A stretch of 54,877 nt of DNA from Mycobacterium phage phiGD24-3. Of the stretch, positions 5,048 to 8,540 are shown one piece after another. The stretch is taken from sequence record MW314854.1; one strand, given 5' to 3'. Each line of letters begins with the position of its first letter. Position 1 is the first letter of the stretch. The position numbers and the translations under genes were made by a program. The notes beneath the pieces are model-generated. The model was not told the origin of the DNA. It worked only from the letters and a program-made list of their open reading frames with translations, and did no database searches.

Positions 5048-7323
5048 TGGTGGGTATCTCTGTCGGAGCATCGGATATTTCCAAGCTCGCCGCCGGGGAG
5101 ACGGAAGCCACCAAGGTAAGCCTCGGCCCTATAGACGTATGGACCGCGTTCACCCCCGTCATCGAAAACAACGTCGCCAGAACCAACTACCCGGTCCCCT
5201 ACGGGGCTACCGGCGCGTGGGTAACGCTCCAAGCCGCTGGCGGTGCGGGTGGTGAAGGCGCTACGGGTCTTTGGACCGCCAACTCAGGAGGCGGTGGTGG
5301 AGGCCGCATAGAGCGGACCTGGGTCCCTGTCTCCGAGATGGGCGCGACCTACAGCGTCGTCCAAGGTAAAGGCGGCAAGGGAGACGGAGGCGACTCCGTA
5401 TTCTCCAGCGGCGGAGTGAATCTGACCGCCAAAGGCGGTAAGAAAGGCTCCTCGGGAGCGACCACAGTCGGTTCCAGCCCGTTCACGATACCCGGCGGAG
5501 CAGGCGGCACGTACTCAGTTACCGGTATGTCCGGGGTGCGCGTGTACCCCGGCTCCCCTGGTGGCGATGCGACTAACACAGTAACTAATCCCGGTGCCAC
5601 CAACGCCAATAACGCAGGCGCGGGCGGCGGCGCGGGAGGTCCTTACAGTTCGGACACCGGACAAACCCCCGGCGGAGCAGGCGGAAGTTCAACCACCGTC
5701 ACGGGTGGTGCGGGCGGTACAGATTCGGTAAAGCCTGGCGTCAAACCCGACAACGCCACAATCCCCAACGGCGGTGCTGGTGGTGGCGGCGGCGCAGGCG
5801 CTTGGTTCGCGGCTGGTGGAACCGGCGGCGATGGAGGCCGCTTTGGTGGCGGTGGCGGTGGAGCAGGGTGTGGCAACACAGTCGCCACAGCGGGTAAAGG
5901 TGGTGACGGATTCACTCGCATCGAGTGGACCGCCGAAAGCATCGAGTATCGACGGGTATTCGTCGCGGTAACCGAGGTCAACCAGACTTCCATCAAGGTT
6001 CAGGTCAACGGGCTTCCGCCCGACGCCGGAACTGTTACCGGATACAACTTCTACAAAAACGGCGTCAAGGTCACGCCGTCACCCCAGTCCCCCCCCGAGT
6101 ACACATTCGGCGGGCTGGACCCGAACTCGACGTACACACTCACCGCTACAGCGGTTTCTAGCGGCTCAGAATCATCTCCGTATGACCCAGCTGTCGTAAG
6201 AACACTCGCTGACGGCGCGTTGTCGTTGGAGGATCGTACAGCGATCGACAACATCGTGGCGCAGTGCATGGCTGAAGACGGCCAGCCCGGCGTGATGATC
6301 TCGATTACCGGACCCAAAGGCAGCTACACCAAAGCGTACGGGGTGTCCCCGGCGTCACCGGGCATCACTTCGTATCCGTTGTCGCTCAACCACCACTTCC
6401 GTATCGGCAGCTTGACCAAATCGTTTACCGGAACAGCGATCCTGATGCAGGTAGACAAAGGCATCTTGTCTCTGGACGACACTCTGGAGAAGTGGATACC
6501 GGGCCTGCCTGACGGCAAGAACATCAAGATCCGCCACCTACTCGGTATGCGCGACGGGTTGTTCGAGTTCCAGGCCGGAAACATCGGGTTGTTCCCGTAT
6601 GGCGTGTTCATGCTGTTGTTCCCGACCTTCCCGGTCACGGTGGACACTCAGATGAACATCATCAAAGGCCACGCGGTTACTTGGCCCGCTGGAACGAACT
6701 TCGCGTACCACAACTCGGGAATGATCGTGTTAGGTCAGATCCTCGAAGCCGCCACCGGTCGACGGTGTAGAGACATCTTCAAGGAAGACATCTGGATTCC
6801 GTTAGGGCTGACCGAGACGTCTTGGCCAGATAGCCCGAACATGCCGGAACCCTACAGTCGTGGACTTGGTCCGGGCATCTTCGGTTTACAAGACTGGACG
6901 GTAGTCAACCCCGAGTATGTCGGGTCCGCAGGCGCTTTGGTGTCGACCATCGACAACATACAGCGCTGGGGTCAGGCGATGCGCGACGGATGGGGTATAA
7001 GCCCCGAGATGCACGCGTTCCGCGAGAACATCGCCGTGTACTCGTCGGACGTATGGCCGTACGAAGGTCCGTCTTACTACGGTTACGGCCCTGCGTATTT
7101 CAACATCGCAAACTGGTTCGGTCACGCCGGATCTGTGTCGGGATACAACTGCACGTGCTACTACGAGCCGGTATCCGGCGCGGTGTTCGCAGGTATGGAG
7201 AACGTCCAATCAAACGGCGTGGCAATCGAATCGAAGATCCAGATCCGCATCTGTGAGTACCTATACCCAGGTACCACGACCGTGGAGCAACCCTTCGATC
7301 CGGCTCTGAGACACCACGAATAA
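5047..7323 (+). CDS. minor tail protein with Gly-rich region, FN3-like domain and C-terminal serine beta-lactamase/DD-peptidase-like (S12) domain
   Basis: GTG overlapping the upstream TAG; SLTK (SxxK), YHN and HAG motifs in the C-terminal 350 aa. Confidence 0.8.
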   Translation: MVGISVGASDISKLAAGETEATKVSLGPIDVWTAFTPVIENNVARTNYPVPYGATGAWVTLQAAGGAGGEGATGLWTANSGGGGGGRIERTWVPVSEMGATYSVVQGKGGKGDGGDSVFSSGGVNLTAKGGKKGSSGATTVGSSPFTIPGGAGGTYSVTGMSGVRVYPGSPGGDATNTVTNPGATNANNAGAGGGAGGPYSSDTGQTPGGAGGSSTTVTGGAGGTDSVKPGVKPDNATIPNGGAGGGGGAGAWFAAGGTGGDGGRFGGGGGGAGCGNTVATAGKGGDGFTRIEWTAESIEYRRVFVAVTEVNQTSIKVQVNGLPPDAGTVTGYNFYKNGVKVTPSPQSPPEYTFGGLDPNSTYTLTATAVSSGSESSPYDPAVVRTLADGALSLEDRTAIDNIVAQCMAEDGQPGVMISITGPKGSYTKAYGVSPASPGITSYPLSLNHHFRIGSLTKSFTGTAILMQVDKGILSLDDTLEKWIPGLPDGKNIKIRHLLGMRDGLFEFQAGNIGLFPYGVFMLLFPTFPVTVDTQMNIIKGHAVTWPAGTNFAYHNSGMIVLGQILEAATGRRCRDIFKEDIWIPLGLTETSWPDSPNMPEPYSRGLGPGIFGLQDWTVVNPEYVGSAGALVSTIDNIQRWGQAMRDGWGISPEMHAFRENIAVYSSDVWPYEGPSYYGYGPAYFNIANWFGHAGSVSGYNCTCYYEPVSGAVFAGMENVQSNGVAIESKIQIRICEYLYPGTTTVEQPFDPALRHHE

Positions 7324-7400
7324 CTGAATACACCAGAAGTCCCCGCGAACCGCCTCTCTGGCCTCGGAGCCATGACGCGGGCGGGGTTCTCTGGAGAGCT

Positions 7401-7425
7401 GGAAGGTATGCCCCCGGCTGGGGCA
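7401..7425 (+). repeat. duplicated 5' fragment (acceptor + D-arm) of the tRNA-Ser-like gene, fused upstream of tRNA 1
   Basis: GGAAGGTATGCCCCCGGCTGGGGCA is near-identical to 7655-7679. Confidence 0.6.
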
Positions 7426-7427
7426 CT

Positions 7428-7499
7428 TGGGACCTAGCTTAGTTGGTAGAGCGCCCGCCTGAAAAGCGGGAGGCCCTGGTTCGAGTCCAGGGGTCGCAG
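7428..7499 (+). tRNA. tRNA-like, anticodon GAA (Phe); G3·G70 mismatch in acceptor stem
   Basis: manual cloverleaf: D-arm GCTT/GAGC, anticodon loop CTGAAAA, T-arm CCTGG-TTCGAGT-CCAGG. Confidence 0.5.
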
Positions 7500-7654
7500 C
7501 AGGAGATGCAACCCTTACCGGGGAATGCTGCATCATCGCGTGGGTGCCGGTAACACCGCGACGCGACGGAATGCTGGACCTGCATACCCGGCCTCACAGG
7601 TGACGGGGTGTAGCTATCCATCGCCTCTCGGTTGGGTCCGTTAAGCCCGCCTCT

Positions 7655-7739
7655 GGAAGGTATGCCCTCGGCTGGGGCAACCGGTCTTGAAAACCGGCAC
7701 ACAGTAACCATTCTGGGGGTTCGACACCTCTACCTTCCG
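7655..7739 (+). tRNA. class II tRNA-like, anticodon UGA (Ser) with 17-nt variable arm; A at position 8
   Basis: acceptor GGAAGGT/ACCTTCC perfect; anticodon stem CCGGT/ACCGG, loop CTTGAAA; T-loop TTCGACA. Confidence 0.45.
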
Positions 7740-7888
7740 CTCGTGGGATCTCCAGTCACCCTGACATTGAGATCATCTGTCCCAGCACCAAACGACTGAC
7801 GAAGCCCTGTGATGGGTAGAAACACCCTCCAGGTGTCTCGTGGAGTCCGCACCGCTGGGGAATAACTGCGGACCTAGGGGTGACAACT

Positions 7889-7961
7889 GTCGACGTAGCT
7901 CAATTGGTAGAGCAGCGGTCTCCAAAACCGCAAGATGCAGGTTCGAGTCCTGTCGGGTCAG
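7889..7961 (+). tRNA. tRNA-Trp(CCA)-like with non-pairing acceptor stem (possible pseudo-tRNA)
   Basis: D-, anticodon- (loop CTCCAAA) and T-arms perfect, but 5' GTCGACG does not pair with 3' CGGGTCA. Confidence 0.4.
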
Positions 7962-8058
7962 CATGGATCAAGCAGGTTCTATGTCTGTGGCCGTCCCGAT
8001 GGTCTGTGGCCCTCGGGGACGCAGGGGTCCAAACCCTCGTCACTTGCTTGATCACCAA

Positions 8059-8134
8059 TGGAACATAGCTCAGCTGGTAGAGCACCCGTCTGAAAAGCGG
8101 GAAGTCCCTGGTTCGACCCCAGGTGTTCCAGCCA
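8059..8134 (+). tRNA. tRNA, anticodon GAA (Phe), encoded CCA
   Basis: perfect cloverleaf: TGGAACA/TGTTCCA acceptor, loop CTGAAAA, T-arm CCTGG-TTCGACC-CCAGG, GCCA 3' end. Confidence 0.8.
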
Positions 8135-8285
8135 TGCGGGCGGTCCCCTATCAGAGGGGAGCCCCCGCGCCAACCCCAAGGGAACGTGTCGACCCGCCAG
8201 CCGACGGCTCGCCAGTCGAGCGGGTGTGGGTGGACTTTGCGACAGCGCGCCCACACCCCCTTCGGGGATACCACGAGAGGAAAAC

Positions 8286-8540
8286 ATGAATTACCTTATG
8301 TCGCTGTTCGTTACAGCTCTGTTCGACTACATAAAGAAGCACCCCGAATTAGTAGAAGACTTCGCCAAGAAGGTCTCCGGGTATGTCATCGCGGAGATTC
8401 CTTCGGCGGTAGACGCGTTCACGGACTGGGTGCCGGGACAGCTGGACGACAAGATCTTCGACACCCTGGCAGCACGATTCGCCAAAGCCCTTCAGAAGGC
8501 CCTCCCCGGATTCGACCTGATTTTCAAGTTCCTGAAGTAG
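8286..8540 (+). CDS. hypothetical protein (84 aa) upstream of lysin A
   Basis: ATG after GAGAGGA; not obviously a holin (no clear transmembrane pair). Confidence 0.55.
   Translation: MNYLMSLFVTALFDYIKKHPELVEDFAKKVSGYVIAEIPSAVDAFTDWVPGQLDDKIFDTLAARFAKALQKALPGFDLIFKFLK

Follow-up and report, generated by a model that had tools for sequence, protein, structure and literature searches.

A conserved double-pseudoknot RNA with a predicted hammerhead ribozyme in the tRNA array of Mycobacterium phage phiGD24-3

The window analysed here, the 54,877 nucleotides (nt) of DNA from Mycobacterium phage phiGD24-3 in sequence record MW314854.1, contains an array of tRNA and tRNA-like genes separated by gaps, which raises the question of whether these gaps are the meaningless remains of a cluster in decay or harbor functional elements of their own. 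The array is flanked on the left by a minor tail protein gene, the stop codon of which is at 7323, and on the right by a small open reading frame (ORF; from 8287) and the lysin A gene (from 8548), in that order, and the records of related phages likewise annotate a minor tail protein and lysin A as neighbours of the array. In 5′ to 3′ order it comprises a fragment of a tRNA-Ser gene, a first tRNA-Phe gene (Phe1), spacer A, a full tRNA-Ser gene, the element that is the main subject of this work, a tRNA-Trp-like gene, spacer C and a second tRNA-Phe gene (Phe2). An earlier interpretation of the same letters, made without database searches and referred to here as the sequence-only reading, treated 7741–7888 as spacer. 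Comparison with other phages indicates instead that 7742–7885 is a conserved structured RNA and not spacer, with a hammerhead embedded in it. The interpretation that we strongly favour is that the region as a whole, part of a prophage of Mycobacterium abscessus, is a variable tRNA cassette with interchangeable modules, which recombination inside tRNA genes reshuffles, and that 7742–7885 constitutes a conserved RNA with a hammerhead. The element apparently belongs to an undescribed RNA family.

The RNA (144 nt, plus strand) is matched as a single copy in the window by R1, a covariance model of the family (121 bits; E: 1e-24), and is predicted to adopt a double-pseudoknot fold. Its helices are Ha (7747–7752/7769–7774), Hb (7755–7761/7878–7884), He (7777–7779/7875–7877), Hc (7781–7786/7854–7859) and Hd (7845–7850/7868–7873), with Ha crossing Hb and Hc crossing Hd to form the two pseudoknots. 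A tertiary pair, G7745–C7866, connects the G at the fourth position of the 5′ CGUGG with the C of AAUAACU; 29 sequences have G:C at this pair and four have U:A. With the two strands of each helix denoted 5 and 3, the consensus reads CGUGG - Ha5 - CA - Hb5 - UGACAU - Ha3 - AU - He5 - Hc5 - {variable loop} - CGUGGA - Hd5 - CNN - Hc3 - GAAUAACU - Hd3 - C - He3 - Hb3 - A. The conserved core without the hammerhead spans approximately 95 nt, and the unpaired positions in it show high conservation even among phages that infect very different hosts.

Across 7741–7888 the window shares 81% identity with the M. smegmatis phage Gaia and 79% with the Arthrobacter phages Karkharias and Constance, with flanks that are unrelated and substitutions that are compensatory. 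Further members were gathered by exact-pattern scans, which yielded 23 IMG/VR contigs, four metagenome-assembled genomes (MAGs), 32 further IMG/VR matches (19 new loci) and 63 metagenome contigs, and model R1, built from 22 sequences, gives 88 matches, 80 of them distinct. When 22 sequences are aligned with MAFFT, 97.3% of the cells are paired and 15 pairs show double changes; these values are attained in 0/500 shuffles, and pairing in slid controls is 34–47%. The model-based alignment of 33 distinct sequences, which is fitted to part of the structure, has 99.2% of its cells paired and contains 19 compensatory pairs (shuffles reaching the observed values: 0/500; slid controls: 39–47%). Helices Ha and Hd and the tertiary pair lie outside the model, yet they are 100% paired in this alignment. 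A G39·U145 pair is found in 20/22 sequences of the MAFFT alignment, and the G·U pairs, taken together with the hammerhead, identify the tRNA strand as the functional strand.

No relevant match to the pseudoknot core was obtained from Rfam 15 at E up to 10, either with the window copy or with a 94-nt hammerhead-free member (L032). The full-text literature returned nothing relevant on the conserved motifs or on hammerheads in actinobacteriophages, although a description outside the searchable literature is possible. No RNA feature is assigned to the element in the GenBank entries for prophiT46-3, prophiBWHA-1, Gaia, Karkharias and Constance. Several known folds were tried for the core and set aside. 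The fold of the hepatitis delta virus (HDV)-like or theta ribozymes was rejected on the grounds that the helix order is wrong, that the 7–8 nt (UGACAUU) between Hb5 and Ha3 leave no room for P3/L3 and that no Rfam HDV-family match is obtained. A permuted hammerhead core beginning at CUGAGGA within the pseudoknot core was discarded, as this segment corresponds to Hd3, in which the A covaries with the base opposite (A–U, C–G, U–A). The hatchet ribozyme has four stems and is without pseudoknots (PMC6561176), and no Rfam match to it was obtained. Twister and twister-sister likewise give no Rfam match at E up to 10, even with the short form of the element, and their pseudoknot partners differ. Like twister, the core combines nested helices with two pseudoknots, occurs naturally in circularly permuted form, accepts optional inserted stems and is frequently associated with hammerheads, but one pseudoknot of the element uses the 5′ tail and not a terminal loop.

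Inserted in the loop of Hc is a predicted type I hammerhead ribozyme (7792–7841, plus strand), which emerges from a parse of all insert-bearing members and for which Gaia and the Arthrobacter phages provide compensatory changes. It consists of stem I (ACGA/UCGU), the core CUGACGA (7796–7802), stem II (7803–7818; AGCCC-UGUGAU-GGGUA), GAAA (7819–7822), stem III (7822–7836; (A)CACC-CUCCA-GGUG(U)) and C17 (7837), and hammerhead numbering puts the predicted self-cleavage site between C17 and U1.1 (7837/7838, plus strand). Long, hammerhead-bearing inserts occur in 39/80 distinct members, all with the same organisation. The core is CUGANGA in 37 of these, UUGACGA in one and UUGAUAA in one. GAAA and the A15.1–U16.1 pair (A7822–U7836 in the window) are present in 39/39, being required by the parsing pattern, while position 17, at which the pattern allowed any base, is C in 28 members, A in eight, U in three and G in none. 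The C3–G8 pair is C/G in 37 members, with a compensatory U3/A8 in Gaia and U3/G8 in one member; U3/A8 in place of C3–G8 is tolerated, according to the statement in PMC3088659 that cites Przybilski and Hammann (2007). Stem I, which has 4 base pairs (bp), occurs in 13 different paired combinations (97–100% paired) with compensatory changes at 2/4 pairs, and this very short stem is extended by the scaffold helix Hc. Among the 39 members, stem II and stem III each occur in 33 distinct sequences, and the mean contiguous lengths of these stems are 3.2 and 4.5 bp, respectively, compared with 0.9 and 0.6 bp in shuffles. Positions 10.1/11.1 are GC in 16 members, AA in eight, UU in seven, AG in three, CA in two and other combinations in three, and are non-Watson-Crick in 22/39, such that G10.1–C11.1 is a quasi-conserved and not an invariant feature. 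Judged from its sequence, the hammerhead is probably catalytically active.

Among the stem II hexaloops UGAGAU is the commonest (7/39). The hammerhead-free members L054, L039 and L099 carry a short variable-loop insert with UGAGAUAC, and there are hints that UGAGAU in the variable loop may dock on the scaffold. The region around the cleavage site (7836–7848; UCUCGUGGAGUCC) and GGAUACCACGAGA (8266–8278), the latter located directly upstream of the ribosome binding site of the ORF at 8287, show 85% complementarity across 13 nt. This complementarity is at chance level for this 1 kb, and the target is also found in a relative without the element.

The family is closely associated with tRNA genes. 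These are present in 32/80 loci, 283 in total, with all of them on the strand of the element and none opposite. At least 15 loci show a fixed junction by which the element is joined directly to the 3′ end of a tRNA or tRNA-like gene; it consists of the acceptor strand, N73, C, then C or U, and CGUGGG, a rule which the window obeys (…ACCUUCC-G-CU-CGUGGG). The next tRNA begins 3–5 nt past the terminal A of the element in several loci; in the window, ACU lies ahead of the Trp-like gene. Some copies are enclosed by an extra helix formed from their flanks. Others are located 7–8 nt behind a TACAAT-like (−10-like) box, with a U-run downstream, and look like free-standing RNA genes. No consistent partner was found among the neighbour genes of these free-standing copies, for which the ORF calls are noisy in GC-rich DNA. 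One lineage (L069, L072, L077 and L097; L072 copy at 430–600) is circularly permuted, with the order promoter-like box (TAGAAT) - Hc5 - hammerhead - Hd5 - Hc3 - Hd3 - He3 - Hb3 - 20-nt linker - CGUGG - Ha - Hb5 - He5, in which all helices can still form. The hosts of the family range from Actinobacteria to Proteobacteria and include a MAG labelled archaeal, and the loop sequences are nearly invariant across this range.

Further features were observed at the element in the named phages. In Gaia, an 18-nt direct repeat (GGCACCTTTTGACCGAGC / GGCACCTTTTAACCGAGC; 1413–1432 and 1642–1661) flanks a tRNA-like gene together with the element, the gene annotated as tRNA-Ser(cga) beside the element is called by neither ARAGORN nor Rfam, and the annotated hypothetical protein coding sequence gp147 starts inside the element. 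In Karkharias and Constance (approximately 1130–1420) the element lies between tRNA-like pieces that no tool calls, namely a T arm with an acceptor 3′ strand upstream and a T arm downstream, while a coding sequence for a 36-amino acid ‘hypothetical protein’ is annotated across the start of the element in Constance.

The array in which the element is found differs markedly among close relatives. The closest record to the window is that of Mycobacterium phage prophiT46-3 of M. abscessus (99.6% identity over 10 kb; coverage: 98%), followed by prophiGD43A-4, prophiBWHA-1 and prophiT49-3. Six array arrangements occur among the window and its relatives: that of the window, as given above; Ser - element - Trp-like gene - spacer C - Phe2 in prophiT46-3; Ser - element - Trp in prophiBWHA-1 and L028; Ser - element - Trp - Leu in L020; Leu - spacer A - Trp in prophiGD43A-4; and Trp - Leu in prophiT49-3. 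The Trp body is the sole module common to all. The window corresponds to prophiT46-3 plus one 254-bp block, composed of Phe1 and 152 nt of spacer A and bounded by a direct repeat of 27 nt (7399–7425 and 7653–7679, plus strand; identity: 96%) that cannot be due to chance. The sequence-only reading had reported a copied Ser 5′ end of 25 bp upstream of Phe1 and deduced recombination between tRNA genes, and both the copy and the deduction are upheld. The orphan Ser 5′ fragment (7401–7426, plus strand), which encompasses the acceptor 5′ strand and D arm (nt 1–26), is identical to nt 1–26 of the prophiT46-3 tRNA-Ser, including the C at position 26, while the right repeat copy and the remainder of the full Ser gene (from 7655) are of the prophiBWHA-1 allele. 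A simple target-site duplication was rejected as the origin of the repeat, since its copies are different alleles. The block would be a segment from another array that was joined illegitimately inside Ser. We infer that the Ser 5′ fragment is a recombination scar: a Phe1 - spacer A - Ser unit would have entered a genome resembling prophiT46-3, and the fragment would mark the left, illegitimate junction of this event. Given one extra unit in a 99.6% identical background and six arrangements drawn from the same modules, the sequences indicate that the cassette is actively shuffled and not simply decaying. The shared CTCTGGA context that had been proposed for the copied Ser 5′ end is indeed present, at 7391–7397 and 7651–7657, but the two occurrences are out of register and the second overlaps the tRNA start.

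Five differences separate the prophiT46-3 and prophiBWHA-1 alleles of Ser (one in the D loop, one at position 26 and three in the variable region), and none falls in a helix. The chance of all five missing the helices at random is approximately 0.02 by a rough estimate, and this distribution suggests that Ser is under selection. Another probable trace of recombination is found in the Trp-like gene, the acceptor stem of which is fully paired in prophiT49-3 (GGGUCGG/CCGGCCU; 7/7), has two mismatches in four relatives (GUCGACG/CGUCUUC) and five in the window and prophiT46-3 (GUCGACG/CGGGUCA). Relatives with the same Trp body give full-length Rfam matches of 55.8–68.5 bits. The 3′ strand and discriminator of the Trp-like gene (CGGGUCA+G) resemble those of the tRNA-Trp of cluster A phages (Seabiscuit: AGAGUCA-G; HelDan: CGCGUCU-G). 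We infer that the gene is the product of a crossover in which alleles with different acceptor strands recombined inside the conserved Trp body (approximately 60 nt). Such a crossover would swap everything to its right and thereby uncouple the 5′ acceptor strand from the 3′ strand. The Trp body in the window is approximately 90% identical to the cluster A tRNA-Trp of HelDan and Seabiscuit, and as in the mosaic arrays of other mycobacteriophages both position and tRNA content vary among close relatives; the window differs from these in that its proposed crossovers lie inside tRNA genes and left a chimeric tRNA with an unpaired acceptor stem and an orphan 5′ fragment. The locus illustrates the shuffling of array modules via crossovers inside conserved tRNA bodies, by which co-adapted acceptor strands can be uncoupled and dead chimeric tRNAs produced.

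Two resemblances were observed within the array. The junction of the Ser fragment with Phe1 (7412–7437; GCTGGGGCA-CTTGGGACCTAG) resembles the 3′ part of the element (7852–7877; GCTGGGGAATAACTGCGGACCTAG), which may reflect junction microhomology or coincidence. The start of spacer C (7972–7988; GCAGGTTCTATGTCTGT) is a 76% copy of the T arm of the Trp-like gene (7937–7953; GCAGGTTCGAGTCCTGT) and may be a second recombination trace.

Several points weigh against the reading of a shuffled cassette with a conserved, hammerhead-bearing RNA. The members were collected with the family's own motifs, and as such motif conservation is partly by construction and diversity is under-sampled. The hammerhead is lacking in 41/80 members, where the loop is up to approximately 9 nt long or a plain hairpin; it follows that the scaffold exists independently of the ribozyme. 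In the window, 10.1/11.1 is A·A and not G10.1–C11.1, stem II contains a G·U pair and stem I has only four pairs. Rfam hammerhead models score below the gathering score and yield no match in the window at E up to 10, while the Hammerhead_3 match in Karkharias is weak (20.9 bits against a threshold of 48.5). The donor arrays, one with Phe1 - spacer A - Ser and one with a Trp allele whose 5′ strand is UGRCCCG, were not found, and for part of the difference between the window and prophiT46-3 a deletion in the prophiT46-3 lineage, rather than an insertion in the window, is possible. Exact-pattern scans of IMG/VR returned nothing for the junction between the Trp-like gene and spacer C.

The question posed at the outset concerns plain decay, by which tRNA genes would drift to pseudogenes under relaxed selection, with spacers that are meaningless and structure that is incidental. 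A broken acceptor stem, a mismatch in another gene, a Ser gene below the Rfam threshold, a gene fragment and a duplicated Phe are all in keeping with such a process, which we nevertheless judge to be a very improbable account of the region. For 7742–7885 it is contradicted by approximately 80% conservation in phages of other genera with unrelated flanks and by the 19 compensatory pairs. The window departs from its 99.6% identical prophiT46-3 background by one discrete block, unlike point decay, and the differences between the Ser alleles avoid helices. The description of the cluster as decaying can be retained for one dead chimera, the Trp-like gene, and for one scar; the array itself is an actively recombined cassette in which Ser is seemingly under selection.

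If the array is transcribed as a single precursor from the late region, excision of the tRNAs by RNase P, RNase Z and related activities would release the 144-nt RNA as a discrete molecule. Release by tRNA-processing enzymes is suggested by its boundaries, as the element starts two bases past the Ser discriminator, and three bases lie between its end and the tRNA-like gene that follows. The hammerhead would cut between C7837 and U7838 to leave 2′,3′-cyclic phosphate and 5′-OH ends, and this cut would sever the Ser half of the precursor from the half with the Trp-like gene and Phe2 with no need for a host nuclease. Simple scans of 7200–8400 detected no promoters or terminators.

The pseudoknot core very likely has a fold-dependent function of its own, to which the hammerhead-free members, the permutation and the loops that are invariant across very different hosts all point, and non-tRNA gaps in phage tRNA arrays can hold conserved functional RNAs. 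A tentative proposal is that the core represents an undescribed phage RNA class, whether a self-cleaving or processing ribozyme or a tRNA-sized mimic, that resides in tRNA arrays, can be permuted and repeatedly serves as host to a hammerhead, and thus constitutes a case of a ribozyme nested in a functional RNA. As a ribozyme or a processing module for tRNA precursors, a possibility that ranks first among our guesses but that we hold to be rather doubtful, the core would cut at its own 5′ edge and trim the 3′ trailer of the upstream tRNA, with the hammerhead as a second, nested ribozyme. This would be in keeping with a start exactly two bases past the tRNA discriminator in at least 15 loci, with unpaired nucleotides that are conserved across very different hosts, with the double-pseudoknot fold and with a natural circular permutation of the kind typical of hammerhead and twister ribozymes; self-cleaving ribozymes are furthermore reported to cluster together (PMC10085705), and theta ribozymes provide a precedent (PMC10879173). 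However, the HDV fold does not suit the core and no Rfam ribozyme family matches it, many copies are solitary and directly follow a promoter-like box, with no trailer to be trimmed, the CGUGG end is internal in the permuted form, and the sequence does not allow a cleavage site to be assigned.

It is also conceivable, though again less than probable, that the core is a trans-acting phage small RNA, such as a tRNA-sized mimic or decoy, that rides in the tRNA precursor; with similar reserve, it may bind a host component that is conserved universally, for instance an enzyme that processes or modifies tRNA, a defence nuclease directed against tRNA, RNA polymerase or the ribosome. The element occupies tRNA slots with tRNA-like spacing (0–2 nt upstream, 3–5 nt downstream), ends in a 7-bp terminal helix followed by a conserved unpaired A, occurs as free-standing copies with a −10-like box 7–8 nt upstream and a U-run downstream, and retains near-invariant loops from Actinobacteria to Proteobacteria and the MAG labelled archaeal. 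The inconsistency of its neighbouring genes does not favour such a role, and a self-cleaving hammerhead within a stable effector RNA would be hard to explain. An unlikely alternative to both is that the tRNA and element together form a selfish mobile module, akin to a retrozyme or a short interspersed nuclear element, that targets tRNA 3′ ends and for whose propagation the hammerhead serves. The identity of approximately 80% between Mycobacterium and Arthrobacter phages in otherwise unrelated contexts, the direct repeat around the tRNA-like gene and element of Gaia and the stereotyped tRNA 3′ junction could be so explained, and type I hammerheads are typical of eukaryotic repeat elements (PMC3088659). 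In every locus examined, however, the element is present as one copy and is neither tandem nor dimeric, a reverse transcriptase or recombinase is not a consistent feature of its surroundings, and the purifying selection on a complex fold, hammerhead-free members included, points to a function for the carrier.

The favoured reading of a functional RNA within a shuffled tRNA cassette can be compared with known systems. The species 1 and 2 RNAs of phage T4 (rnaC/rnaD) are stable non-tRNA RNAs in a phage tRNA cluster that are released by tRNA processing, and no ribozyme is known in them. The element is similar as a non-tRNA RNA of approximately 100–140 nt embedded in a phage tRNA cluster.

Type I hammerheads (Rfam clan CL00010) include the bacterial and phage examples of Perreault et al. 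(2011; PMC3088659). The hammerhead of the present family shares with them the core CUGANGA ... GAAA ... UH, a three-stem junction with stems II and III capped and stem I open, covariation in all stems and an intergenic location in phages. It differs in that its 4-bp stem I is continued by a conserved pseudoknot in place of an ordinary helix, that it is found inside the loop of another conserved RNA which also exists without it, and that its scores are below the Rfam thresholds. Theta ribozymes are minimal HDV-like ribozymes that adjoin phage tRNAs and have been proposed to process tRNA precursors (Kienbeck et al. 2024; PMC10879173). They too are pseudoknotted structured RNAs located directly downstream of, and co-oriented with, tRNA genes in tailed phages, and a precursor-processing role is plausible for both. 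The helix order of the element is, however, incompatible with the P1-P2-P3-P1.1(-P4) order of HDV, its hammerhead would cut approximately 95 nt downstream of the tRNA end and not at that end, and its hosts are soil and environmental lineages and Actinobacteria, whereas theta ribozymes are found in phages of gut Bacteroidota and Bacillota. The scaffold is apparently new and is well supported, with two pseudoknots, a tertiary pair, a natural circular permutation and forms with or without a hammerhead. It offers a tractable system for the roles of hammerheads in phages and for the RNA-catalysed processing of tRNA precursors by phages, as proposed for theta ribozymes.

The tRNA genes themselves were assessed with ARAGORN and the Rfam tRNA model. 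ARAGORN calls Phe1, Ser and Phe2 and makes no call for the Trp-like gene. Not all four genes are scored as canonical by covariance models, the Trp-like gene giving a local match only and Ser falling below threshold, and in this respect the sequence-only reading stands; the particulars that it had listed for each gene were recovered at its coordinates or no more than a few bases away, as described below. Phe2 (8059–8134, plus strand; anticodon GAA) is canonical, with a full-length Rfam match (8059–8131; 66.5 bits), zero non-canonical pairs and an encoded CCA (8132–8134), in agreement with the perfect fold ascribed to it. Phe1 (7428–7500, plus strand; anticodon GAA) is likewise matched over its full length (7428–7499) with a score, 64.2 bits, that nearly equals that of the perfect Phe2. 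The Rfam model flags its pair 3–70 as non-canonical, which is the G·G acceptor mismatch previously noted, and the gene, still called by ARAGORN, has no encoded CCA. Phe1 is absent from all related phage records, and exact-pattern scans of IMG/VR returned nothing for it.

The Ser gene (7655–7739, plus strand; ARAGORN call: 7655–7740) encodes a divergent class II tRNA-Ser(UGA) with a perfect acceptor stem, a long variable arm, a short D arm, A8 and a T stem with two G·U pairs, the last two features as previously recognised. It scores below 29 bits with the Rfam tRNA model, which is under the gathering score, and its best match is to tRNA-Sec (40 bits against a threshold of 47). Records OQ417965 and OQ417975 annotate this gene as tRNA-Ser. 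For the gene 7655–7739, A8 is atypical, and we take its anticodon arm to be the same as that of bacterial tRNA-Ser(UGA).

The Trp-like gene (7889–7961, plus strand; anticodon CCA) has intact D, anticodon and T arms with the conserved loop nucleotides present, and its local Rfam match covers model positions 6–65 only (7894–7955; 53.1 bits), with no non-canonical pair flagged. Between its acceptor strands, 5′ GUCGACG and 3′ CGGGUCA, pairs form at 6–67 and 7–66 only (2/7), as anticipated by the description of good arms on a non-pairing acceptor stem, and the gene is very probably a dead, non-functional chimera. A rescue of this acceptor by pairing of UGAC (7881–7884) with GUCA (7957–7960) was considered; it would leave a 9-nt bulge, overlaps helix Hb3 and is unsupported in relatives, and was treated as chance. 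The type I tRNAs of these phages have U1–A72 and mostly G73 (Phe1, Phe2, the 3′ strand of the Trp-like gene, the Asn tRNA of Gaia and the Trp tRNA of Seabiscuit), with A73 in the Lys tRNA of Gaia. Bacterial tRNA-Phe typically has G1–C72 and A73, and U1–A72 with G73 is unusual for it. A connection with tRNA-dependent lysogeny was set aside, as the paper on that subject (PMC10865867) covers neither these prophages nor these isotypes.

Of the remaining gaps, spacer A (7501–7654, plus strand) is homologous to the spacer after tRNA-Leu(UAG) in prophiGD43A-4 (BLAST; identity: 79–84%). Its first hairpin shows a compensatory change between the two phages (GAUGCA/UGCAUC in the window; GAUGCG/CGCAUC in prophiGD43A-4, 1860–2001), while its fold is not significant (z = −1.1). 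In the window it follows Phe and precedes Ser, and in prophiGD43A-4 it follows Leu and precedes Trp; it ends in a 7-bp hairpin with loop CCGUUAA, 3–4 nt ahead of the next tRNA. Spacer C (7962–8058, plus strand) is shared with prophiT46-3 only and forms a predicted branched fold closed by a 12-bp helix (7966–7977/8042–8053). The inverted repeat that had been described around this spacer as 9 bp was found here as 12 nt with 92% complementarity. Four further inverted repeats of like quality occur in the same 1 kb, and the repeat on its own is near chance level. The spacer as a whole folds with −42.7 kcal/mol (z = −3.0), and 0/200 shuffles fold as well. Within it, a 13-nt near-repeat, GTCTGTGGCC(G/C)TC, is found at 7983 and 8002. 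Model R1 detects no copy of the pseudoknot RNA in the window other than that at 7742–7885 at E up to 10, nor do spacers A, C and D represent diverged members of the family.

Beyond the array, a conserved hairpin (8136–8168 in the window, plus strand) is found after the last tRNA (or Trp) of each array in the prophage family (L001–L004, L020 and L028), with a compensatory change from UCCCCU/AGGGGA to UUCCCU/AGGGAA in prophiBWHA-1. A second strong hairpin is located at 8219–8261, and both hairpins, which are without U-tracts and lie ahead of the lysis genes, are kept in all relatives.

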